Assembly: GCA_023245865.1 (NCBI GenBank)
Contig: JAHFJN010000001.1
Location: forward strand, 263,649 to 327,648
DNA: 64,000 nucleotides
From: Candidatus Peribacteria bacterium
Lineage (GTDB): Bacteria > Patescibacteriota > Gracilibacteria > Peribacterales > Peribacteraceae
Direction of reading: 5' to 3'
Shown here piece by piece: positions 21,289 through 31,806 of the stretch. Both the position numbers and the translations under genes were made by a program. The number at the start of each line of letters is the position of its first letter. The stretch's first letter is position 1. Below the pieces are notes generated by a model, which was not told where the DNA came from, did not search any database, and saw only the letters and a program-made list of their open reading frames with translations.

Positions 21289-22023
21289 TTACTTCATCTT
21301 CACAATCATCTTGTCCAGATCCTTCACTCTCACTTCGGCTCGTGCTTTTTGAGTCGCTGTGAATTCGGATAAAAGCTGGTGAAGAAGTGTGCTCGATTTT
21401 TCATCCCCGAGTTTTTCAGCGAGTGCAAACCATGCGTATGCCTCGACAATATCAGGCTTTGCTCCCTCACCCTTCGCATACATGACCCCGAGATTATACG
21501 CAGCTTTGCTGTAGCCCTGCTTGGCAGATTGCCAAAAGAGATTCAAGGCCTTGCCCAGATCCTGTTTCATGCCCTCTCCGCGATACTCCATCACGCCGAG
21601 ATTGTATGCAGACCGTTCGTTATTATTCGTCACACCCTTCGTAAACCACTCGATCGCCTTTTGATAATTCTGTGCGACTCCCTTCACTCCTTGGTAGTAC
21701 GTCATGCCGACGTTAAACTGCGCCATCGCGTCTCCACGATTTGCCGCACGTGTGAGCAGATCCACACCCTTCCTTGCATCCTGCGCCACGCCCGAGCCCT
21801 CCAGGTACATCATACCGAGATCAAATTGTGCAGACAGGTCACCCTTGTCTGCCAGTGCTTGGAGCTCACTGACGGACTGTGGCTTTTTCTCTGGTGGAGA
21901 AGCTTGAACATTTCCGGTGCCCGCTTTCGACGATTGCGGAGTGTTTGGCTGGCAGGCGGAAATCGCAAGCACAGAAATCAACGACAAAAAAATGATGCGT
22001 ACATCCATGCAGCAATCGTACAA
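21289..22023 (-). CDS. Sel1-like repeat (SLR) lipoprotein
   Basis: 244 aa. LAISACQP lipobox. Repeated units: AQFDLGMMYLEGSGVAQD, AQFNVGMTYYQGVKGVAQN, AYNLGVMEYRGEGMKQD, AYNLGVMYAKGEGAKPD. Confidence 0.8.
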   Translation of the reverse strand: MYDCCMDVRIIFLSLISVLAISACQPNTPQSSKAGTGNVQASPPEKKPQSVSELQALADKGDLSAQFDLGMMYLEGSGVAQDARKGVDLLTRAANRGDAMAQFNVGMTYYQGVKGVAQNYQKAIEWFTKGVTNNNERSAYNLGVMEYRGEGMKQDLGKALNLFWQSAKQGYSKAAYNLGVMYAKGEGAKPDIVEAYAWFALAEKLGDEKSSTLLHQLLSEFTATQKARAEVRVKDLDKMIVKMK

Positions 22024-23475
22024 CTATTGACGCAGTGCAGCAATCGTTTGCGTCACTGACGCGAGAGGAGCAGCAGAGGTGTCTGCGGCAATCGGAGCAC
22101 CGAGCAATTCTGCAATACCTCTACTGACGGGGTATTCCTTTGCAAGTGAGTGCGGCATTTTCTCATACCGAGACACGATCGTCTCGTGCCGGGTCGATCC
22201 ACTGCCGTACGTGACGGTGTTGTTCCAGCCAACTTCGCTGCTTGCGAGTGGGCGATTCCTTACGAGGAAGTTTGTCGGGGCGGTTGATGCAAAATACGGT
22301 CCTTCCAGCTGTACCATTCGACCATCCGGAATCCCGTACAAATCTACGAATGCTTCCTCTCCTACCGTGTGTCCGAGGAAAACCAGATCACCAGGTGTGT
22401 CATTCGTAAATGTCAGGTCCTGCTTTCCGGGGTACACAGTCGCGTCGATTCCCATGCCATATTGCTTGTAGTGGATCACGTACAAACTGTGATTTTTGCG
22501 CTCGTGAATGGGGAGTCCTGCCAGTACAACCGCACGCATCGTTGTCGTCGCTCCTTGGCAGATTCCTCCACCCGCTTCCGGCACCAAGTCGTGCCCGTTC
22601 ACGATCACGAGCGAATCCAGCCAACCATTTCCGTGCGTGATCGGGCCTCCGAGCGTTGAGTTGAACGAGAATACTTTGCCCATCGGCGCGATAGCACCGT
22701 TAATTTTTTCATTGATCACTTTGTGAACATTCTTGATGCGTCCGTACGGTGAATGTGAGAATTCTGATTTGCCCGTCGAGAGGTGGACAAGAGTCTGCGG
22801 ACCCTCCGCGCCGGGGTAGGTGATCGTTCCCAATTTATATTGCAGTGATACCGTGAGCTCTGCTTGATCGTTGCCAAGGGCAGACACCATCTGCTCTGCA
22901 ACCGAATCTACATCAAGTGTAAATCCGTCGACAGGATTTCCCTTCAGCTCCACACGCATGATCGTATGATCTTTGTACGTATTGCTGACAAGAGCATGTT
23001 GCACGATTGGGATCTGTCCAAGACTAAACTCTATAAGCGAAGCTGCAATCTTATCTTTGTTCAGGAAAAACGGATGGTTTGGTACGGATGCATTCAATGT
23101 TACCCATTCAGGATGCGCCTGCAGGTTTGTCTGCCACGTCACATCGAGTGGATGGTCGTTCCCTTCCGATACAAAATGAAGAGAAATTGTTTTCTTCAAA
23201 AATTCTCTGCGCTCCTGCACAGAGTACGTGAGTCTCGAAGCGGAAATGTCCGTGCCCAGTCGAGTTCGAATACGGTTACTGAGCCTACGTGCGACGCGCT
23301 GTGTTGAAGGATCCATGGGAACAATGAATTCCTGCAGCGGCCGGACTGCCGTGCGAACAATAGCCGCAATGCCTGTCTCTGAGGTCATATGGATCATCGC
23401 AGCTTGCATACACACAAAGACACCAAGGAACCCCAAAGTGTGACACTGTTGACTTTTATTTCTTTTTGTTTTCAT
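22024..23475 (-). CDS. VanW family protein
   Basis: 483 aa. C-terminal block FSFNSTLGGPITHGNGW..GGGICQGATTTMRAVVLAGLPIHERKNHSLYV..GIDATVYPGKQDLTFTND matches the VanW signature. It abuts the Sel1 gene with a 0-nt gap. Confidence 0.8.
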   Translation of the reverse strand: MKTKRNKSQQCHTLGFLGVFVCMQAAMIHMTSETGIAAIVRTAVRPLQEFIVPMDPSTQRVARRLSNRIRTRLGTDISASRLTYSVQERREFLKKTISLHFVSEGNDHPLDVTWQTNLQAHPEWVTLNASVPNHPFFLNKDKIAASLIEFSLGQIPIVQHALVSNTYKDHTIMRVELKGNPVDGFTLDVDSVAEQMVSALGNDQAELTVSLQYKLGTITYPGAEGPQTLVHLSTGKSEFSHSPYGRIKNVHKVINEKINGAIAPMGKVFSFNSTLGGPITHGNGWLDSLVIVNGHDLVPEAGGGICQGATTTMRAVVLAGLPIHERKNHSLYVIHYKQYGMGIDATVYPGKQDLTFTNDTPGDLVFLGHTVGEEAFVDLYGIPDGRMVQLEGPYFASTAPTNFLVRNRPLASSEVGWNNTVTYGSGSTRHETIVSRYEKMPHSLAKEYPVSRGIAELLGAPIAADTSAAPLASVTQTIAALRQ

Positions 23476-23503
23476 TTGATCGTATTATACCATATTTATA
23501 TTA

Positions 23504-24868
23504 TTATGCAATCATAATCTTCCTTTGCAATCCTCCTAGCCCCAGGGCCACAACGCTTGCTAAAACCACGAACAATGAATCAAACGCCGCTCCTGTCGAA
23601 GGAAGCTCAGCGACAACACCCGATTGGCCGACCGTCACGCGTTCGTTGAGGGAAAGGTACCGAAGGTCACTGCCGGAGATACTTGCTGCATTATCAATGA
23701 TAGATCCGCTTTGCAGATCCGAGGCAATAAGCATCGTGTACGTGCGCTTCCAAACCTCCCCCGGCTGCAGCACAGGAAGATTCCACGTGATTTGTCCATC
23801 ACTCGACAGATCTCCACCAGCCGCACTCACCACACTCATTTGAGTAGGATCAAAGCGATCAGTGACGACGGCATCGGCGATTGCGTGTGTCATAACGTTC
23901 TGGACATAGACGGTGTAGTGCACTGTTCCGCCCGGCACCACCTCATTCGTGTCCGAAATTTTACGAAAGAGAATCTTGCGTGCAAGCTCCATTGGTTTCT
24001 GCTGAACAGGAGCATCATCGAGTTCGAGTGTGGGCTTCTCGGCCGTAAACCGATTTTGATACGGATACCACGGTACGATGTTTGTATTGTCCGAAGCGGA
24101 AACTCCACCCACTCTCGCCATTGCGTGGACGTACGTGTACGGTGTCAAGTGACGCCGAATCATTGTGTGAATGTGGAATACCTTCTTTTCATTCGGTCCA
24201 AAGGAGATGCTCGGCCATGTGATACTCGGATATGTATTGATGGATCCCTCGGGGTCCATGCTCTGAATACCAAGCAAATCAGACAGCGAGACAGAAACAT
24301 CTGTTTGTCTGGCATATTCGCTCGTATTGAGCACCGTAACAGTGTAATCGAGCGTCTCTCCCGGTCGTGCGGTTTCCATACTATCCGTAATACTGACGCG
24401 ATACGTATTATTGGTGAAAGGCGCGCTGCCAACGGCTGTGACATCTGTAGCGCTTGATCCCTCGGACTCTGCGCGTGCAAAAATCTGTGTGCCCTGCGTG
24501 AGGTTCGGAAGCAAGTTCACGTTCACGGCAAGAAGCATCGGGTAGCCGTCCTGCACGGTAACATGGTCCCAACGAATCGTATTTCCTCTCCTGTATCCTC
24601 CGTTATCCGCACTTACCGTGTTCGCTTCAGGAGGAATGACGAATGTCACATTCACGTCGCGGTTATAGCTGTAGTTCTGCTGCAGACGAATGATGTAAAC
24701 GAGGCTTCCGCCCGGTGCCACCACATCCTTACCATCGCCCAATGTTATAAAGAGAGGGGCGTTTTGGGCTGACCCGGACCTCGCCTCAACGAAGAGGAAT
24801 CCTGCTACGAGGATCGCTGCCAATGCCGTTAGGAGGCTCAACTGATTGAGGAGGGGCAAGCGCTTCAC
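23504..24868 (-). CDS. Cell-surface repeat protein with a C-terminal LPXTG-type sorting signal
   Basis: 454 aa, GTG start, N-terminal signal peptide. It has repeated beta-sandwich-like units (..GETLDYTVTVLNT.., ..GGTVHYTVYVQNV..). The C-terminus is ELPSTG plus a hydrophobic stretch plus RK. Confidence 0.8.
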   Translation of the reverse strand: MKRLPLLNQLSLLTALAAILVAGFLFVEARSGSAQNAPLFITLGDGKDVVAPGGSLVYIIRLQQNYSYNRDVNVTFVIPPEANTVSADNGGYRRGNTIRWDHVTVQDGYPMLLAVNVNLLPNLTQGTQIFARAESEGSSATDVTAVGSAPFTNNTYRVSITDSMETARPGETLDYTVTVLNTSEYARQTDVSVSLSDLLGIQSMDPEGSINTYPSITWPSISFGPNEKKVFHIHTMIRRHLTPYTYVHAMARVGGVSASDNTNIVPWYPYQNRFTAEKPTLELDDAPVQQKPMELARKILFRKISDTNEVVPGGTVHYTVYVQNVMTHAIADAVVTDRFDPTQMSVVSAAGGDLSSDGQITWNLPVLQPGEVWKRTYTMLIASDLQSGSIIDNAASISGSDLRYLSLNERVTVGQSGVVAELPSTGAAFDSLFVVLASVVALGLGGLQRKIMIA

Positions 24869-25002: not shown

Positions 25003-25218
25003 TTACTTCGCCACAAACGCCGTCGCCCCGAGCCACGCCAGGTCGAAGACAGCCTTCATTGTCCGTGCAAATGTCGGGCTCTCCATAATCACGCCAAGCA
25101 GTTCATCTTTATTGAGCGACACCACTCCGAACGTGTCACCCTGAGCTCGCCGAAGGGTGGAGGCAGTGTGTGATACAATTATGCTCATATGCAGAAAACC
25201 TGCACTCACTGCAGTCAT
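25003..25218 (-). pseudogene. Probable C-terminal remnant of a TrmB-like regulator (paralog of 26934-27707)
   Basis: GDTFGVVSLNKDELLGVIMESPTFARTMKAVFDLAWLGA aligns by eye with ADTVALFAYDDELTIVKVENQNFADMFQKIFECLWERA at the C-terminus of the intact regulator. It has the same position and orientation relative to a Cys-rich paralog. The N-terminal wHTH part is missing. Confidence 0.4.
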
Positions 25219-26886
25219 GCATTCGAAGTCACGGATGATGATCTAAAATTCTATGACAAAGTTTCACCGGTGATTGCTGGTAGAAAGTTTGCAATTCCCG
25301 CACCCGTTGAGTGCTATGACTGTCGCCAACAACGTCGCCTTGCAATGCGTAACGAGAGGAAACTTTATTCACGAACATGCGATCTTTGCCATGCAAGCAT
25401 TATTTCCAACTATTCTCCGGACAAGAAAGTGACGGTGTATTGCCCTGCCTGTTGGTGGGGAGATTCCTGGAGCGCACTGTCATTTGGTCGAGACTTCGAC
25501 TTCAATCGTCCATTTTTCGAGCAGTACCGCGAGTTATCACAGAGTATGCCAAAAATCAGCAGCATCACACTCGGTGATAATATCAATAGTGACTACACAC
25601 ACGATGGCTACCGTCTGAAAAATTGCTATTTAATTTTCGACGGAGAACAAGCGGAGGATTGTTACTATGGTGAACTCTACGGACTTATCAAGGATTGCTG
25701 CGACTTTTTGTACGTGAAGGAGTGCGAGCTTTGTTATGAGTGCATCCACTGCAACAAGTGTTTTGATCTGCGGTTTTCCCGCTATTGCAATAATTGCTCA
25801 TCCTCTTGGTTTCTTCTCGATTGTAACAGCTGCAAAAACTGCATCGGCTGCACGAATCTCGTGCAGAAGGAATACCATATTTTCAATCAGCCATATTCGA
25901 AGGAGGAATTTGAATCAAAGAGAGTCGCAATGCGACTTGATACGCACAGCGGTGTAGTGGAACTACGGAGGAAGGCAGAGGACTTTTTCCTCACACATCC
26001 CAGGCGCGCGACACGCGGATACATGAACGAAGATGTCAGCGGCGATAATCTGAGTGAGTCAAAAAATACCTTCGATTCATATGATTGCATGGGCATGCGT
26101 GATTGTCGTTACTGCACCAACTGCATGATGGGCTGCAACGACAGTTATGACATCGATGCATGGGGCACTGATACTGCGAACTGTTACAATTGTGCGTACG
26201 TTGGGGCCGGGGCTCAGAACATGCTTGGTTGTTTCTATTGTGGATTTGGTGTCAGCAATTTATCTTACTGCATTTTCTGCTTACAGGGTGGTAAGGGAAG
26301 TTTGTTTGGATGTGAGGCGATTCGTAAGGAAGGATACTGCATCTTGAACAAGCAATACTCCCAAGATGAATATGAAGAGATGGTTCCTCGCATCATCGAG
26401 CATATGCAGAAGACAGGAGAATGGACGCAATTCTTTCCTTTGACCATGTCCCTGTTTGCGTACAACGAAACCGTTGCAAATGATTATTTTCCCCTAGCGA
26501 AGCAAGAAACACTGAACAGTGGCCTGCAGTTGAAGGAGACCGATGATCGTATGCCTGACGTGGAGAGAGTGATCAACGCATTGGAGCTTCCTGACTCGAT
26601 CAACGATATTCCCGATGACATTCTAAACTGGGCAATCCGCTGTGATCAATCTGGGAGACCGTTCAAAATCCAAAAGGCGGAGCTTGAATACTATAGAAAA
26701 ATGACCATACCGCTTCCACGAAAACACTTTGACATTCGTCATGCGAAACGGCTCGCATTACGCCCTCCAAGGAAATTGTGGAATCGACAATGTACGAAGT
26801 GCCAGAAAGTGATAGCAACCAGCTATGCGCCGGACAGTCCAGAGATTGTGTATTGCGAATCTTGCTATTTGCACCTTGTTTATTGA
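25189..26886 (+). CDS. Cys-rich protein with zinc-ribbon-like N- and C-terminal caps (paralog 1), unknown function
   Basis: 565 aa: CTHCSHAFEV..ECYDCRQQRRLAMRNERKLYSRTCDLC..VYCPACWW at the N-terminus, a dense Cys central region, and CTKCQKVIATSYAPDSPEIVYCESCYL at the C-terminus. TGATACAAT (25171-25179) lies 9 nt upstream of the ATG. Confidence 0.8.
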   Translation: MQKTCTHCSHAFEVTDDDLKFYDKVSPVIAGRKFAIPAPVECYDCRQQRRLAMRNERKLYSRTCDLCHASIISNYSPDKKVTVYCPACWWGDSWSALSFGRDFDFNRPFFEQYRELSQSMPKISSITLGDNINSDYTHDGYRLKNCYLIFDGEQAEDCYYGELYGLIKDCCDFLYVKECELCYECIHCNKCFDLRFSRYCNNCSSSWFLLDCNSCKNCIGCTNLVQKEYHIFNQPYSKEEFESKRVAMRLDTHSGVVELRRKAEDFFLTHPRRATRGYMNEDVSGDNLSESKNTFDSYDCMGMRDCRYCTNCMMGCNDSYDIDAWGTDTANCYNCAYVGAGAQNMLGCFYCGFGVSNLSYCIFCLQGGKGSLFGCEAIRKEGYCILNKQYSQDEYEEMVPRIIEHMQKTGEWTQFFPLTMSLFAYNETVANDYFPLAKQETLNSGLQLKETDDRMPDVERVINALELPDSINDIPDDILNWAIRCDQSGRPFKIQKAELEYYRKMTIPLPRKHFDIRHAKRLALRPPRKLWNRQCTKCQKVIATSYAPDSPEIVYCESCYLHLVY

Positions 26887-26933: not shown

Positions 26934-27707
26934 TTAGTTCTTTCCCGTATTTTTAGTCACTGGTGCACGCTCCCACAAACACTCGAAGATTTTTTGAAAC
27001 ATATCTGCGAAGTTTTGGTTCTCGACCTTCACGATTGTCAGTTCATCGTCGTAGGCGAAGAGTGCAACAGTATCGGCGAAAATCACCATCTCAGAAATAA
27101 ATTGCATCTCTGTGGGCAGCAGTCGGATCTCGTATTCGTCATCCTGTGGGATCTCCTTGATGTACCGCCGCGCTCCTGCATTGTCGACGAAGAGCTCGCG
27201 TCCGCGCAGTCGCGCTTTACCAAACAACAGGGGCACGACGTTTTGTCCGAATGCGTTGAACATCACTTCAGCGTTGAAGAACGCGCAAAAATCTTTCTGG
27301 AGCAGCACGTCACGGTACACCTGCTTCATCCCGTCGATGCCGTGGAGTGTCGTCACACGAGGGGGGCTGACGAGGGAGGGAGTCAACGATTGGAGGTAGG
27401 GAAGAGCTGATTCAAGCAGCATCTGCGTTTCACTCCACTGCTTCTCTCGATCTTTGGCATAGTGCACTAGTCTGTGGACGGGTTCTGCGATGAACTGCAG
27501 GACTTTGCCGGATTCAATATGGGAAACGAGAGCCTTCTCTTCAAGACTCTGGAGTACCAAATACGTATGACTGCGTGATTGCTTGGATGCCTTGGCGATA
27601 GCGCTTACGCGCCCGCTTTTCATGGCAAGCAGTGCTAAGTAGACCTCGACTTCTTTGTCATCGAGTCCAATGCGCTTGAGCAATGGTCGAATCGCAGAAT
27701 GTTGCAT
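26934..27707 (-). CDS. TrmB-family transcriptional regulator
   Basis: 257 aa. N-terminal wHTH: LLKRIGLDDKEVEVYLALLAMKSGRVSAIAKASKQSRSHTYLVLQSLEEKALV, plus a TrmB-like C-terminal domain. Confidence 0.8.
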   Translation of the reverse strand: MQHSAIRPLLKRIGLDDKEVEVYLALLAMKSGRVSAIAKASKQSRSHTYLVLQSLEEKALVSHIESGKVLQFIAEPVHRLVHYAKDREKQWSETQMLLESALPYLQSLTPSLVSPPRVTTLHGIDGMKQVYRDVLLQKDFCAFFNAEVMFNAFGQNVVPLLFGKARLRGRELFVDNAGARRYIKEIPQDDEYEIRLLPTEMQFISEMVIFADTVALFAYDDELTIVKVENQNFADMFQKIFECLWERAPVTKNTGKN

Positions 27708-27727
27708 TTGTCTATAATTATAGACAA
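27708..27727. promoter_or_regulatory. Perfect 20-bp palindrome, candidate operator with two face-to-face TATAAT boxes
   Basis: TTGTCTATAATTATAGACAA starts 1 nt upstream of the regulator ATG (27707). TATAAT reads on the plus strand at 27713-27718 and on the minus strand at 27717-27722. Confidence 0.6.
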
Positions 27728-27812
27728 TATGAGTTTAATTGTAAAGTATGCTAATAATTGACTCTTGATGTAGGCCATTTACAAATGTCAATAAATGTTC
27801 ATAATGATGGAC

Positions 27813-29510
27813 ATGAGTATCCGTCCATGTCGTTTATGCCAAGCAATGTTTGAGGTCGATGAAGAAGATCTTCATCTCTACGAAGAGATTTCTCCAACCT
27901 TCAACGGAAAAAAGGAATTGATTCCTCCTCCAACACTTTGCCCGTCGTGTAGGTCGCAGCGACGGCTCGCGTGGCGCAATGAAAGAACGCTCTACAAGCG
28001 AACGTGCGATGCATCCAGAAAAAGTACGTTGTCCGTTTTTTCACCGGACAAACCCTTCAAAGTGTATAGCGTTGAGCAGTGGTATGGTGATGCATGGGAT
28101 CCAAAATCGTACGGAAGAGATTTCGATTTCAATCGACCGTTTTTCCCGCAGTTTCGTGAGCTCATGGAAGCAGTGCCGCAGCTTGCACTTTCCGTCACAA
28201 ATAATCAAAACTCCGATTATGTGAATCAGGCAGGGTGGCTGAAAAACTGCTATCTGATTTTTGAAGCTGACTTTGCTGAGAATTGCATGTACTCGCATCA
28301 CATAGTCGATTCACGAAGCACGTTGGACGTACTCCAAGCATCGAGCCTCGAGCTCTGCTACGAGTGCGTGTTCTGTCGCAATAGCTATAACCTTCGCTAC
28401 TCACAGCAATGCGAGAACTGCTCTGATTCGTGGTTCCTCAAAAATTGCGTCGGGTGTCGCAATTGCTTTGGATGCATGAATCTGCGCAATAAAGAATTCC
28501 ACATCTATAACCAAAAATATTCTGAAGACGAGTACCGAGAGAAATTGGCCAGCATGCATCTCGATTCCTATTCTGCACTGAAGGTTTTGCGTGAGCAGTT
28601 CGTAGCATTTGCACAGCAATTTCCGAATCAATATTATTACGGAACGCAGAACGAAAACTCGACCGGAAATTACCTTTGGAACACGCAGAATTGCAGGAAT
28701 TGTTACGAAATTCAGGAATGCCAGGACTGCAAGCACGTTGTAAATTCTCGTTTCATGAAAAGGGTTCATGACACGACCGTGTTCGGCTCACAAAAAGGCG
28801 TGGAATATTGCTATGAAAATCATGAGATCGGAGACGCTGTCCGCAACGTCGCATTCAGCGATCAGATTTGGACAGGCGTGAGCAATGTGTATTATTCGAA
28901 GCTCTGCCTGCAGAGTTCTCACGATCTTTTCGGCAGCATGGGGCTGCGACACAGCAGTTACTGCATTCTCAATAAGCAATACACGAAAGAAGAATACGAG
29001 AATCTTGTGCCACGCATCATCGAACACATGAGAAAAACAGGAGAATGGGGGGAATTTTTTCCGATCGAGATCAGCCCCTTTGCATACAACGAAACTCTCG
29101 CATCGGTGCATTTCCCTATGGAGCAGAAGGAAGTGGATGCTCGAGGGTGGAAGTGGAAGGACATTCAAGTGGAGGAGCCGAAAGTTGATCAAATTGTCGA
29201 AGCTTCTGACTTGCCAGAAACAATCGCAGAAGTCTCAGATGATATTGTGAACAGCGCCGTTCGGTGTGAGAAGTCAGGTCGATTGTTCAAGATTATCAAG
29301 CAGGAGCTCGATTTCTACCGCCAACAAAATCTTCCTTTACCCCACGTACATCCCGATGAGCGACATCTTGAACGTGTCGCACTTCGAAACCCCCGAACGC
29401 TCTATGCTCGCACCTGCATGAAGTGCCAGAAGCCGATTGAAACGACCTATGCGCCAGACAGGTCAGAAATTGTGCATTGTGAGGAATGCTACCTGAACGA
29501 GGTCTATTGA
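27813..29510 (+). CDS. Cys-rich protein with zinc-ribbon-like N- and C-terminal caps (paralog 2), unknown function
   Basis: Listed ORF starts at 27795. ATG 27813 (MSIRPCRLC..) matches the paralog 1 N-terminus and sits 7 nt after CATAAT (27800-27805). It shares long blocks with 25189-26886: GRDFDFNRPFF, LKNCYLIF, VPRIIEHMxKTGEW, FAYNET, YAPDxxEIVxCExCYL. Confidence 0.8.
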   Translation: MSIRPCRLCQAMFEVDEEDLHLYEEISPTFNGKKELIPPPTLCPSCRSQRRLAWRNERTLYKRTCDASRKSTLSVFSPDKPFKVYSVEQWYGDAWDPKSYGRDFDFNRPFFPQFRELMEAVPQLALSVTNNQNSDYVNQAGWLKNCYLIFEADFAENCMYSHHIVDSRSTLDVLQASSLELCYECVFCRNSYNLRYSQQCENCSDSWFLKNCVGCRNCFGCMNLRNKEFHIYNQKYSEDEYREKLASMHLDSYSALKVLREQFVAFAQQFPNQYYYGTQNENSTGNYLWNTQNCRNCYEIQECQDCKHVVNSRFMKRVHDTTVFGSQKGVEYCYENHEIGDAVRNVAFSDQIWTGVSNVYYSKLCLQSSHDLFGSMGLRHSSYCILNKQYTKEEYENLVPRIIEHMRKTGEWGEFFPIEISPFAYNETLASVHFPMEQKEVDARGWKWKDIQVEEPKVDQIVEASDLPETIAEVSDDIVNSAVRCEKSGRLFKIIKQELDFYRQQNLPLPHVHPDERHLERVALRNPRTLYARTCMKCQKPIETTYAPDRSEIVHCEECYLNEVY

Positions 29511-29562: not shown

Positions 29563-31806
29563 ATGGCTTTGCGCTACCTCCACATCGTCGTGCCACAGGG
29601 GTCGCAGGAAAACAAGAAGCTGGAGTCCAAGTTCCAGGAATTGCTTGTGAATATGCGAAATACCTTCACAGGGAAGTCAATTTCGCTCGAATTCTTCGGA
29701 TACAATCAATACACGTATTTCTTCATCGTCCTCGATGAGAAGTTGCTCGAAACCGTCGAGGGATTGATCTACGCGACGTTCCCGGACGCCGAGATCAAAG
29801 AGACGCAAGACTATACACAGATCTTTGACTCAAAAAAGCTGGCGCTCGCGGGAGCGGCCATCAGCATGCATCACTCGGACATTTACCCTATCAAAACGTA
29901 CGATCTCTTCGAGGAGGACAGTTGCTCCCGGCTCTTCTCCGTGGTCTCCAAAATCGGAAGTCAAGACCAAGTGTGGGTGCAGATCATCACGGAGCCGCAG
30001 GACGATACTGGTGCCTATCACTTGCTTCGAAAAATCAAGACGCGGCTCGCGATCTTTTTTCACTTCTTCAGCATCCGCGACCGCATGCGCGAGGGTGGCC
30101 GCAAGTCCATCAACCATGTGCGGCATGATCTTGCCAAGAAAAAGGCGGAACAGAAGCCGTACCGGGTGAGTATCCGTTGCGCGTACATAGCTGAAACGGC
30201 CGAAGCTGCGAAAAGAAAACTGGAGGCGGTCATTTCTGCGTTTGCTCAATTCAATGATCGCGACATCAACAGTCTGCATGGGCACCTTGAACACAATACC
30301 GCATCATTTATTCAAAAATACCGCGCACGTGTACAAGGCACACCATGCATCATGAATACTCAGGAGGTCGCGACCCTCTATCATTTTCCGAATGCCGATT
30401 ACGTCTCACACGTCGTGCATGTGCTTGCACGCAAGGCCGATCCACCGCAAGATCTCCCCAAGATCGGCGAGAAGGACGTCAGCGGCTTTGGCATCACGAA
30501 CTATCACAATAACTTCGTGCCGTTTGGCATCAAGCGCAGTGACCGCCGGCGTCATCTCTACACGGTCGGAAAATCAGGATCGGGCAAGAGCAAATTACTC
30601 GAGCTCCTCATCAACGAAGACATTCAATCGGGGCAGGGGATTGCGGTTCTCGATCCGCACGGAGATCTCGTTGATGCGGTGTTGCGCTACATCCCCAAAC
30701 ACCGTATCGACGACGTGGTGCTCTTTAACCCTGCCGACACCGACTTCCCGATAGCGTTCAACCCCATGGAAATCGTGAGCGACGAATTCAAAATGCAAGT
30801 GACGATCGGTTTCATTCAGATCTTCAAAAAACTCTTTGGAGGCAACTGGACATACCGCCTTGAGCACGTCCTTCGCTATACGACCCTCGCACTCCTCGAT
30901 AGCCCAAACACAACGGTTCTGAGCATCCTTAAAATGCTGACAGATAAAAACTATCGGCAAAAGATCGTAGCGCGGATCGAAGACAGTGTCGTCAAAAGTT
31001 TCTGGGTTTCGGAATTTGCTGCATGGAGTGAAAAGTTCGATGCCGAGGCGATCACGCCGCTGCTCAATAAAGTCGGCCAGTTCGTTGCAACGGATATGAT
31101 CAGAAACATCATAGCGCAGCCTCAGACAAAGTTCGACATTCGCGACATTATGGACAATAAGAAAATTCTTCTCATGAAAGTAAGTAAGGGCCTGCTCGGA
31201 GAGGAAAATTCTTCGCTGATCGGTTCTATGATCATCACAAAGCTCTATCAAGCTGCCATGAGCAGAGCCGATACACCCGAGGAACAACGAAAAGACTTTT
31301 ACTTCTACGTCGATGAGTTTCAAAACTTTGCAACCGAAACCTTCGCAGAAATCCTCAGTGAAGCTCGCAAGTACCGACTGAATCTGACGCTTGCGCATCA
31401 ATACATGGGACAACTCAGTGACATCGTCCGCGAAACAGTCTTTGGAAACATTGGTTCGATGGTGAGCTTCCGTGTGGGCGCAGAGGATGCGCTCGTGCTC
31501 GAAGGAGAGTACAACCCCATTTTCAAGGAGCGAGACATCATCAACCTGGGTGTTCGTGAGTTTTACATCAAGATGCAGGTCAACGGCGAGCAGCGTGAAG
31601 CGTTCTCCGGTCGTACGCTTGATGCTCCGCAGGTAACAACGGACTACACGCAGGAGATCATCGAAGCATCACGGAGAAAATACTGCACGCCACGTAAAGA
31701 TGTCGAAACTGCTCTCAAGCAATGGGACGAAGCAGCATCAAAGCCTGCAGAGAAAGGAGAAATTCCGGAGGAGGATCTGGAAACGTTTGAGGAGCCGCTC
31801 ATTTGA
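29563..31806 (+). CDS. Soluble VirD4/TraD-like (type IV coupling protein-like) P-loop ATPase
   Basis: 747 aa. Walker A GKSGSGKS, Walker B-like FYFYVDEFQNF, then ARKYRLNLTLAHQYMGQL. No N-terminal TM segment is seen. TATAAT at 29546-29551. Confidence 0.8.
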   Translation: MALRYLHIVVPQGSQENKKLESKFQELLVNMRNTFTGKSISLEFFGYNQYTYFFIVLDEKLLETVEGLIYATFPDAEIKETQDYTQIFDSKKLALAGAAISMHHSDIYPIKTYDLFEEDSCSRLFSVVSKIGSQDQVWVQIITEPQDDTGAYHLLRKIKTRLAIFFHFFSIRDRMREGGRKSINHVRHDLAKKKAEQKPYRVSIRCAYIAETAEAAKRKLEAVISAFAQFNDRDINSLHGHLEHNTASFIQKYRARVQGTPCIMNTQEVATLYHFPNADYVSHVVHVLARKADPPQDLPKIGEKDVSGFGITNYHNNFVPFGIKRSDRRRHLYTVGKSGSGKSKLLELLINEDIQSGQGIAVLDPHGDLVDAVLRYIPKHRIDDVVLFNPADTDFPIAFNPMEIVSDEFKMQVTIGFIQIFKKLFGGNWTYRLEHVLRYTTLALLDSPNTTVLSILKMLTDKNYRQKIVARIEDSVVKSFWVSEFAAWSEKFDAEAITPLLNKVGQFVATDMIRNIIAQPQTKFDIRDIMDNKKILLMKVSKGLLGEENSSLIGSMIITKLYQAAMSRADTPEEQRKDFYFYVDEFQNFATETFAEILSEARKYRLNLTLAHQYMGQLSDIVRETVFGNIGSMVSFRVGAEDALVLEGEYNPIFKERDIINLGVREFYIKMQVNGEQREAFSGRTLDAPQVTTDYTQEIIEASRRKYCTPRKDVETALKQWDEAASKPAEKGEIPEEDLETFEEPLI

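Follow-up and report, generated by a model that had tools for sequence, protein, structure and literature searches.

Predicted zinc-finger-capped, cysteine-rich solenoid proteins form a large unnamed Patescibacteria family with gene arrays beside a VirD4-like ATPase

Two paralogous genes and an ATPase gene in a Peribacteria genome

The 64,000-nucleotide stretch of a Candidatus Peribacteria genome analyzed here (assembly GCA_023245865.1, contig JAHFJN010000001.1, positions 263,649 to 327,648 of the forward strand; hereafter the window) encodes two paralogous cysteine-rich proteins, which we refer to as copy 1 and copy 2. Both open reading frames (ORFs) belong to an unnamed and very large protein family of the Patescibacteria, or Candidate Phyla Radiation (CPR), with the nearest relatives in Peribacteria, Peregrinibacteria and Gracilibacteria. 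The window holds a minimal cassette, in which copy 1, a regulator gene and copy 2 are followed by an ATPase gene. Its features are:

25189..26886, + strand: family copy 1, 565 amino acids (aa) with 41 Cys; Cys4 ligand sets of the N-terminal cap (N-cap) intact
26934..27707, - strand: TrmB-like helix-turn-helix (HTH) regulator, between copy 1 and copy 2 on the opposite strand
27708..27727, no strand: perfect 20-bp palindrome TTGTCTATAATTATAGACAA, abutting the regulator start codon and unique in the window
27813..29510, + strand: family copy 2, 565 aa with 28 Cys; second N-cap zinc site lost (C-S-S-Q), solenoid B largely without Cys
29563..31806, + strand: ATPase with a DUF8128 domain and a VirD4/TrwB-like P-loop domain, 745 aa, soluble; Walker A GKSGSGKS, Walker B FYFYVDEF; 52 nt 3' of copy 2

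An initial annotation of this DNA had proposed two paralogous ORFs at 25189–26886 and 27813–29510 that lack a signal peptide and transmembrane (TM) segments, and both points were borne out. The two reading frames are open and intact, and the proteins are 45% identical from end to end (BLASTP E 0.0). For copy 2 an upstream ATG at 27795 is a possible start, and the M-x3-C start of its relatives fits 27813. No signal peptide or TM segment was found in copy 1 or copy 2 (maximum 19-residue Kyte-Doolittle (KD19) hydropathy 1.36 and 0.95, respectively), as fits cytoplasmic proteins, and we conclude that both are soluble and cytoplasmic. Copy 2 is full-length and conserved despite the loss of N-cap finger 2 and of most cysteines in solenoid B. 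Across the family the number of cysteines per protein ranges from 27 to 50 (5–9% Cys).

The overall layout is a double zinc-finger cap, a first solenoid (A), a helical linker, a second solenoid (B), a conserved acidic module and a second cap homologous to the first. In copy 1 the predicted parts, all on the + strand, are:

25189..25473, + strand: N-cap; finger 1 C5/C8/C42/C45 with basic helix CRQQRRLAMRNER, finger 2 C64/C67/C85/C88
25585..25893, + strand: solenoid A, about seven 12-residue coils, ending CxxCxxCxxC-NL..K.Y.I.N
25894..26004, + strand: variable helical linker (H238-247, H253-267)
26005..26364, + strand: solenoid B, homologous to A and among the most variable parts, ending in the most conserved block FGC..L..K.YCILNKQY
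26365..26640, + strand: conserved acidic C-module and variable linker, with VPRIIEHM.KTGEW..FFP and FAYNET
26641..26886, + strand: C-terminal cap (C-cap); finger 1 degenerate (C485/H513/H518) with net charge +9, finger 2 an intact Cys4 set (C535/C538/C556/C559)

Three features go beyond what the initial annotation had recognized: the duplication within the core, the loss of the second N-cap zinc site in copy 2, and the array-plus-ATPase cassette.

A large family without a characterized relative

The initial annotation could place the proteins in no characterized family. A confident profile or structure match was sought in Pfam, NCBIfam, PHROGs, PADLOC, sequence and profile searches of the PDB, and Foldseek searches of the PDB and BFVD, and none was found; these searches returned only sub-threshold zinc fingers and weak beta-helix matches. 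In Pfam, only the last ~35 residues of the copies match, below threshold, to zf_Tbcl_2. NCBIfam gave no match for the window copies, the PADLOC defense models gave none for the family, and PHROGs gave only weak matches of unknown function. Sequence and profile searches of the PDB returned only a LIM-like half-finger (E 0.013), and the ~380 residues between the caps matched no family in any of the searches run.

Relatives are abundant. A word-indexed search of clusters at 90% identity retrieved 6,601 at E ≤ 1e-3 among 8,000 candidates scored, all annotated as hypothetical protein and bearing the taxon names Peribacteria, Peregrinibacteria, Abawacabacteria or 'Patescibacteria group'. An exhaustive search of 50%-identity representatives gave 3,745 matches, 1,561 of them at E ≤ 1e-30, and nearly all matches listed at that level are full length (545–580 aa). 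In species-representative contigs (one genome per species), relatives are encoded by at least 582 stretches, and the 78 best loci come from Peribacteria, Peregrinibacteria, Gracilibacteria (some of which read TGA as sense), Altimarinota and unclassified Patescibacteria.

Only one partial match was found among 2.9 million IMG/VR contigs. The window surroundings are ordinary chromosome: ten large ORFs scanned comprise matches to ClpB, TPR, a Wzy-like ligase, PKD, epimerase, DnaK, PAP2, SBP and SLH and one ORF without a family match. The single viral match and this housekeeping context indicate that the family is cellular rather than viral, and a phage or mobile origin was rejected on the same grounds. 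The cysteine-rich proteins reported from Ca. Peribacter are extracellular, 580–3,860 aa long (mean ~1,650) and annotated with pappalysin and Myxococcus repeats (PMC4736985, Table S4); their size, location and annotations rule out identity with the present family. We found no description of the family or of the cassette in the literature; the family is unnamed, and its core is not covered by a Pfam model.

Two odd members were seen. One full-length relative (49% identity; L021, JAHJBR010000176.1) lies on a 2.2-kb contig binned as 'Candidatus Micrarchaeota archaeon', a label that is more likely a binning error than a sign of an archaeal member. An 808-aa relative (P0199) carries a C-terminal extension of ~255 aa, which was inspected as a possible Rosetta-stone fusion and has no Pfam match; the extension could be a fusion or a gene-calling artifact.

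Homologous zinc-finger caps at both ends

The two ends of the protein are copies of one unit. In copy 1 the N-terminal module (residues 1–94) and the C-terminal module (480–565) align by BLASTP at 34% identity (E 3e-18), and profile–profile comparison of the caps over 250 family members (hhalign) gives a probability of 99.8% and E 4.9e-30, so that the caps are homologous and the terminal duplication of a zinc-ribbon-like unit, read from the two sequences in the initial annotation, holds family-wide. Pfam scans of 46 relatives, each scanned singly, match zf_Tbcl_2 (PF23477) in 35 and zf_Tbcl (PF13451) in 14 at E ≤ 0.01, with best E-values of 5.2e-7 and 5.5e-7. Because both models are matched, each cap is probably a pair of zinc fingers, one of the zf_Tbcl and one of the zf_Tbcl_2 type, and a probable treble clef. 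In the window copies zf_Tbcl_2 matches residues 528–561 with 17.0 bits (copy 1) and 18.1 bits (copy 2), short of the gathering cut-off of 27, and zf_Tbcl is not listed for either at E ≤ 1. The likeness extends along the caps, which read CxxC..F.I...(D/E)..FY..P.P..CxxCR and then C..C.K.I.T.Y.P....VYC..CY. Members of zf_Tbcl and zf_Tbcl_2 are mostly small proteins, and both are themselves uncharacterized families; in contrast to them, the present family has ~380 residues between its caps that have no counterpart there, and its window copies fall below the Pfam cut-off.

The cysteines of the caps behave as true zinc sites, since their ligand sets are kept or lost all-or-none. Statistics on cysteines, coupling and conservation, here and below, come from a 250-sequence family alignment built from the retrieved loci. 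The zf_Tbcl_2-type CxxC...CxxC ligands C535/C538/C556/C559 are present in both copies and read CCCC in 245 of the 250 members, and the N-cap finger 1 ligands C5/C8/C42/C45 do so in 226. At N-cap finger 2, 65 members have CCCC, 145 have C... and 39 have none of the four, with a single intermediate; positions 67, 85 and 88 are coupled with pairwise phi of 0.99–1.0. Positions 488 and 516 of C-cap finger 1 have a phi of 0.98. On this basis the cysteines of the caps are predicted to serve as structural ligands of zinc.

The first fingers of the caps are basic, with a median net charge of +3 in the N-cap and of +7 within 46 residues in the C-cap (+9 in copy 1). In both caps, an Arg-rich helix comes after the second CxxC. 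Such features could point to proteins that bind DNA or RNA on their own, gripping nucleic acid with the basic treble-clef fingers and using the acidic solenoid rods as spacers or mimics, with a different target for each paralog; the neighboring ATPase would then be a DNA translocase acting on the same substrate, or unrelated. The VirD4/TrwB family does consist of DNA-binding translocases, and Foldseek matches to the caps are DNA-binding zinc fingers and HNH-type treble clefs, at chance level only. Against such a role, no significant match to a known nucleic-acid-binding domain was found, the whole proteins are acidic (pI ~5.7–6), and most of the conserved surface lies outside the fingers. We regard a stand-alone nucleic-acid-binding function as doubtful.

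A duplicated core of 12-residue coils

A Cys-dense core and a beta-helix or solenoid-like fold had both been suggested by the initial annotation. The core proved real, and more regular than had been described: in the family alignment the Cys-bearing columns recur with a strict period of 3 (179, 182, ... 221; 291–309; 361–384). The consensus of one 12-residue coil is [KE]-[ND]-C-[YF]-x-C-x-[DN]-C-x-[NG]-C. The core is also internally duplicated; residues 120–245 align with 270–399 (hhalign probability 99.9%, E 1.1e-33), and both halves end in a common block, (F)GC.(N/G)L..K.Y(C)I.N..YSKEEYE.

Covariation and modeling agree on the coil length. The presence of Cys correlates best at i/i+12 in half A and at i+11 to i+13 in half B, and the strongest couplings within the cores, measured as mutual information with average product correction (MI-APC), peak at a separation of 12 (20 of 87). 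An AlphaFold2 model built on 142 diverse relatives (mean pLDDT 93.7, pTM 0.91) shows 10-residue strand runs separated by 2-residue turns, again with a period of 12; a first model based on 46 sequences had a weaker core (pLDDT 50–77). The Cys correlation, the coupling separation and the modeled period together indicate that residues 12 apart are stacked neighbors. The core is thus predicted to consist of two beta-solenoids of 12-residue coils, in line with the solenoid-like fold first suggested, and the arrangement of two tight, Cys/Ser-lined solenoids between zinc-finger caps is unusual enough to be of structural interest in its own right.

Structure searches lend the fold geometric support. 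When the good model was compared with the PDB by Foldseek, the top 50 matches were all left-handed beta-helix proteins (GlmU, LpxD, LpxA and gamma-carbonic anhydrases), and these hexapeptide proteins are the only consistent structural neighbors of the family model; the earlier model had matched only generic zinc fingers in the PDB and BFVD. The beta-helix matches are weak (E 4.7e-3 to 0.14, TM ≤ 0.27, root-mean-square deviation 10–20 Å), so that the local geometry is solenoid-like without a real family match. Left-handed beta-helices have 18-residue coils and an [LIV]-G-x4 motif, whereas the present family has 12-residue coils with Cys at each third position. None of the acyltransferase or carbonic-anhydrase residues is present in the family, and neither the window copies nor the 46 relatives match Pfam Hexapep.

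Another geometric parallel is the Tenebrio molitor antifreeze protein (TmAFP, PDB entry 1EZG), a Cys-rich beta-helix with 12 residues per coil. In TmAFP, as in the family, the coils carry small inward Cys or Ser residues at each third position. TmAFP pairs its cysteines in disulfides within each coil (i, i+6), whereas the family has no i/i+6 Cys coupling (maximum phi 0.39); the family also lacks a Thr-x-Thr face, coil positions 2 and 4 being N/D and Y/F, and it is cytoplasmic without a signal peptide, in contrast to the secreted TmAFP. Entry 1EZG was absent from the Foldseek top 50. The likeness is one of geometry only, and there is no evidence of homology.

Core cysteines as packing residues

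The initial annotation had also suggested that the core is stabilized by metal or disulfides, and this part did not hold. Cysteine occupies the core columns in 16–97% of sequences, with Ser, Leu and Val as the alternatives. At the quartet 182/185/188/191, for example, the patterns CCCC (76 members), CCC. (34), C..C (28), CC.C (27) and CC.. (21) occur, and all partial combinations are common. The highest pairwise phi among core cysteines is 0.39, compared with 0.98–1.0 at the cap sites. As the core cysteines mix freely and are exchanged for Ser, Leu or Val, they do not form obligate Cys4 metal sites or disulfide pairs. Core clusters of the Fe–S ferredoxin-like or metallothionein-like kind were rejected, there being no co-varying sets of Cys ligands, and a metal-filled or disulfide-braced core was likewise ruled out by ligand covariation. 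Loss of the central Cys pattern among homologs had been named as grounds for abandoning the initial description; the positions of the ladder are in fact conserved, and the individual cysteines are not. The alignment suggests that the core cysteines behave as favored inward-facing packing residues of a very narrow solenoid, alternating with Ser, Leu and Val.

These data bear on a possible function in the storage, buffering or conduction of metal or redox equivalents, in which each coil would use its four inward cysteines to hold Zn, Fe, Cu or Fe–S clusters in stacked sites, or to form disulfides. Such a function would account for the high Cys content, for the up to four cysteines per 12-residue coil in CxxCxxCxxC spacing, and for the conservation of C215, C218 and C221, which with C375 and C384 are the best-kept core cysteines (89–97%) and lie at the C-terminal end of each solenoid. 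It is opposed by the mostly intermediate Cys content of the core columns (16–80%, with Ser, Leu or Val instead), by the occurrence of each partial combination of the putative quartets with none of the coupling seen at the caps, and by copy 2, which remains intact though most of its solenoid-B cysteines are lost. We consider a metal or redox function very improbable.

Conserved polar blocks and the distribution of charge

Conservation is unevenly spread along the protein. The lowest mean entropies are found at the end of solenoid B (1.1 bits), in C-cap finger 2 (1.5), in the C-module at 393–450 (1.6) and in C-cap finger 1 (1.7), and the highest in the helical linker 236–272 (2.9), solenoid B at 273–372 (2.5–2.7) and the linker 451–467 (2.9). 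The solenoids and the C-module are acidic, with a net charge of -3 to -4 each. The non-Cys blocks GRDFDFNRPFF, VPRIIEHMxKTGEWxxFFP and FAYNET, singled out as highly conserved from the two copies alone, are so across the family: G100, D104, F109, F110, E411, W412, F415, F416, P417, Y425, N426 and E427 are invariant or at least 90% conserved.

Conserved polar residues of this kind could belong to an enzyme, in which the solenoids would act as a substrate platform (as in beta-helix transferases and lyases), the paralogs would differ in substrate, and the active site would be formed by D92, D104, Q112, N133, E411 and Y425-N426-E427. Many Asp, Asn, Glu and Tyr residues outside the zinc sites are indeed invariant or at least 90% conserved, the top Foldseek matches are beta-helix acyltransferases and gamma-carbonic anhydrases, and regulators of the TrmB type, such as the one encoded here, often sense small molecules. 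Those Foldseek matches, however, are as weak as described above and have 18- rather than 12-residue coil geometry; the catalytic motifs of known families are all absent, and several of the conserved Asn and Asp residues are coil turn residues. An enzymatic role therefore seems unlikely to us.

Gene arrays that mostly end in a DUF8128/VirD4-like ATPase

The genomic setting of the family was surveyed by tblastn over 83 retrieved loci. Family genes occur in co-directional tandem arrays with 1 to 11 copies per locus, up to 11 copies in 21.7 kb (L025), and the loci of one assembly together reach 12 copies; genes for TrmB-like HTH proteins lie among them on the opposite strand. In the Patescibacteria, which account for a large part of bacterial diversity, the genome spans ~1 Mb, and up to 11 copies of a 1.7-kb gene in a stretch of ~20 kb represent a heavy investment for such a reduced genome. 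Pairwise identity within arrays has a median of 42% and a maximum of 61%, indicating old copies and no recent duplicates. Arrays of different genomes share few orthologs (reciprocal best hits at 55–69% identity), the rest of the copies lying at the ~45% paralog background, and gene order is shuffled. These patterns point to a birth-and-death repertoire of old paralogs. A fixed set of hetero-oligomer subunits was rejected in view of the few shared orthologs, the shuffled order and the ATPase-adjacent copy, which forms no clade, and a recent arms-race expansion was rejected for lack of recent duplicates.

Arrays with at least three copies and at least 2.5 kb of downstream sequence end in a DUF8128/VirD4-like ATPase gene in 15 of 22 cases, with gaps of 8–959 bp; solitary copies are followed by it in 1 of 14. 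The family member that adjoins the ATPase is not orthologous between genomes and forms no clade, which means that the linkage has survived the turnover of the arrays. In the window, no + strand terminator is predicted between copy 2 and the ATPase. At three loci (L049, L075 and L081) the ATPase gene precedes an array or sits within one rather than at its end, and in L075 the opposite strand gives two additional ATPase-like matches.

The ATPase of the window matches T4SS-DNA_transf (PF02534, 39.9 bits, cut-off 20.1) and TrwB_AAD_bind (PF10412, 34.3 bits) in Pfam, TrwB (1e9r, E 5.4e-5) in a PDB sequence search, and only generic mad8/HerA P-loop models in PADLOC. It resembles the type IV coupling proteins TrwB, VirD4 and TraD in its P-loop domain, with intact Walker A and B motifs. 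It differs from them in carrying a DUF8128 domain of ~320 aa in place of the N-terminal membrane anchor, none being found (maximum KD19 hydropathy 1.04), and in its surroundings, as no VirB4, relaxase or type IV secretion system (T4SS) channel genes are present among the ten large window ORFs scanned. The DUF8128 domain (residues 1–320; 29563–30520) is 56–73% identical among the 120 best relatives, which are named Peribacteria or Peregrinibacteria, and is thus much better conserved than the cysteine-rich family (~42%). We found no mention of a DUF8128 domain in the papers searched.

A 2025 survey counted 5,713 VirD4-like type IV coupling protein homologs in 2,918 Patescibacteria genomes, only 148 of them near virB4; its authors suggested that these proteins may have been exapted, and the role of the abundant homologs away from any T4SS was left open (PMC12102498). 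The consistent linkage to the arrays supplies a concrete, testable partner and a first lead to the role of such orphan ATPases.

Proximity to a coupling-protein homolog could also mean that the family proteins are effectors, exported to a host cell by a route that the ATPase gates and diversified in an arms race. The turnover of the repertoire, the conserved extreme C-terminus (..CYLKEVY) and the episymbiotic lifestyle of CPR bacteria (PMC12102498) would fit. Export is harder to reconcile with an ATPase that has no membrane anchor, the lack of T4SS channel genes among the ORFs scanned, the old age of the copies, the zinc-folded state of the proteins, and the caps being the most conserved parts, with no variable 'warhead'. 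We judge exported effectors to be improbable.

A possible adaptor repertoire for a coupling-protein motor

We tentatively propose that the family proteins may be interchangeable adaptors or cargo for an exapted VirD4-like coupling-protein motor, a possibility that we hold with limited confidence. In this scheme one constant partner, which might be the ATPase or nucleic acid, would be bound through the conserved parts of the protein, namely the basic first finger of each cap, the acidic C-module and the block that closes solenoid B. What sets one paralog apart in specificity would be the variable surfaces of solenoid B and the linker, and the choice of copies to be expressed would fall to the TrmB-like regulators. 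Supporting this proposal are the linkage of array and ATPase in 15 of 22 arrays and its persistence through turnover, the conserved N-domain of the ATPase, the 52-nt gap in the window, and the division of charge between caps and solenoids.

Several points weigh on the other side. The partnership of family and ATPase is read from gene neighborhood, an ATPase gene is missing from the vicinity of about one-third of the arrays and of nearly all solitary copies, and all loci examined come from one broad CPR lineage, so that part of the linkage could be inherited synteny. Sequencing runs containing the locus are DNA metagenomes only; in four groundwater samples they show zero read differences. An enzyme active site would be another fitting reading of the strongly conserved polar blocks (GRDFDF, EWGEFFP, FGYNET), and folded proteins that zinc stabilizes are ill suited to passage through a secretion channel. 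Taken as a whole, the combination of capped solenoid architecture, old paralog repertoire and motor-linked adaptors or cargo is the best explanation we can offer, at somewhat less than even confidence.

A broader version of the adaptor proposal, which we put forward as speculative and rather doubtful, is that the family supplies the partner so far missing for the thousands of VirD4-like ATPases in Patescibacteria that are orphan and anchor-less. The genome would encode a panel of individually regulated, zinc-capped solenoid adaptors, and each adaptor would bring its own cargo, be it protein or nucleic acid, to a single conserved and exapted coupling-protein motor. If true, the result would be a cytoplasmic machine for sorting or transfer that is specific to CPR bacteria and has no counterpart described so far, and it might serve exchange with the host cell.

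Regulator, promoters and flanking genes

The palindrome 27708–27727 recurs as TTTGTCTATA..TATAGACAAA upstream of the closest orthologs of the regulator (75–78% identical) at two other loci (L018 and L039), and this conservation makes it a likely operator. It is probably an operator in a divergent promoter region common to the regulator and copy 2. Upstream of the more distant TrmB-like paralogs of the arrays (21–32% identity), the palindrome is absent or different.

A second regulator gene may once have preceded copy 1, where an ORF overlaps the start of the gene:

25003..25218, - strand: possible remnant of a second TrmB-like gene, a weak match (36% identity over 25 aa at the matching C-terminal position, E 0.001)

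Two promoter-like elements, both consensus matches only, lie close to the start codons: a TACAAT hexamer at 25174–25179, 9 nt 5' of the copy 1 ATG (25189), and TTTACA-16-CATAAT, which ends at 27805, 7 nt 5' of the copy 2 ATG (27813). The two family genes may be leaderless or nearly so.

On the opposite strand upstream of copy 1, the region 21289–24868 encodes a Sel1-repeat protein (by sequence), a VanW-domain protein and a DUF11/LPXTG-anchored surface protein. These genes are not conserved beside the arrays at other loci and, as far as tested, are unrelated to the cassette.

In a groundwater metagenome, contig depth is 2- to 4-fold higher over 28829–29065, 26222–26458 and 31199–31435. These stretches encode the most conserved motifs of the family (FGC.GL..K.YCILNKQY..EEYE.LVPKIIEHM) and part of the ATPase, and they are matched at ≥85% DNA identity by dozens of short contigs that stem from other members of the community. 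The raised depth and the matching contigs together indicate that the groundwater community holds many other members of both families.

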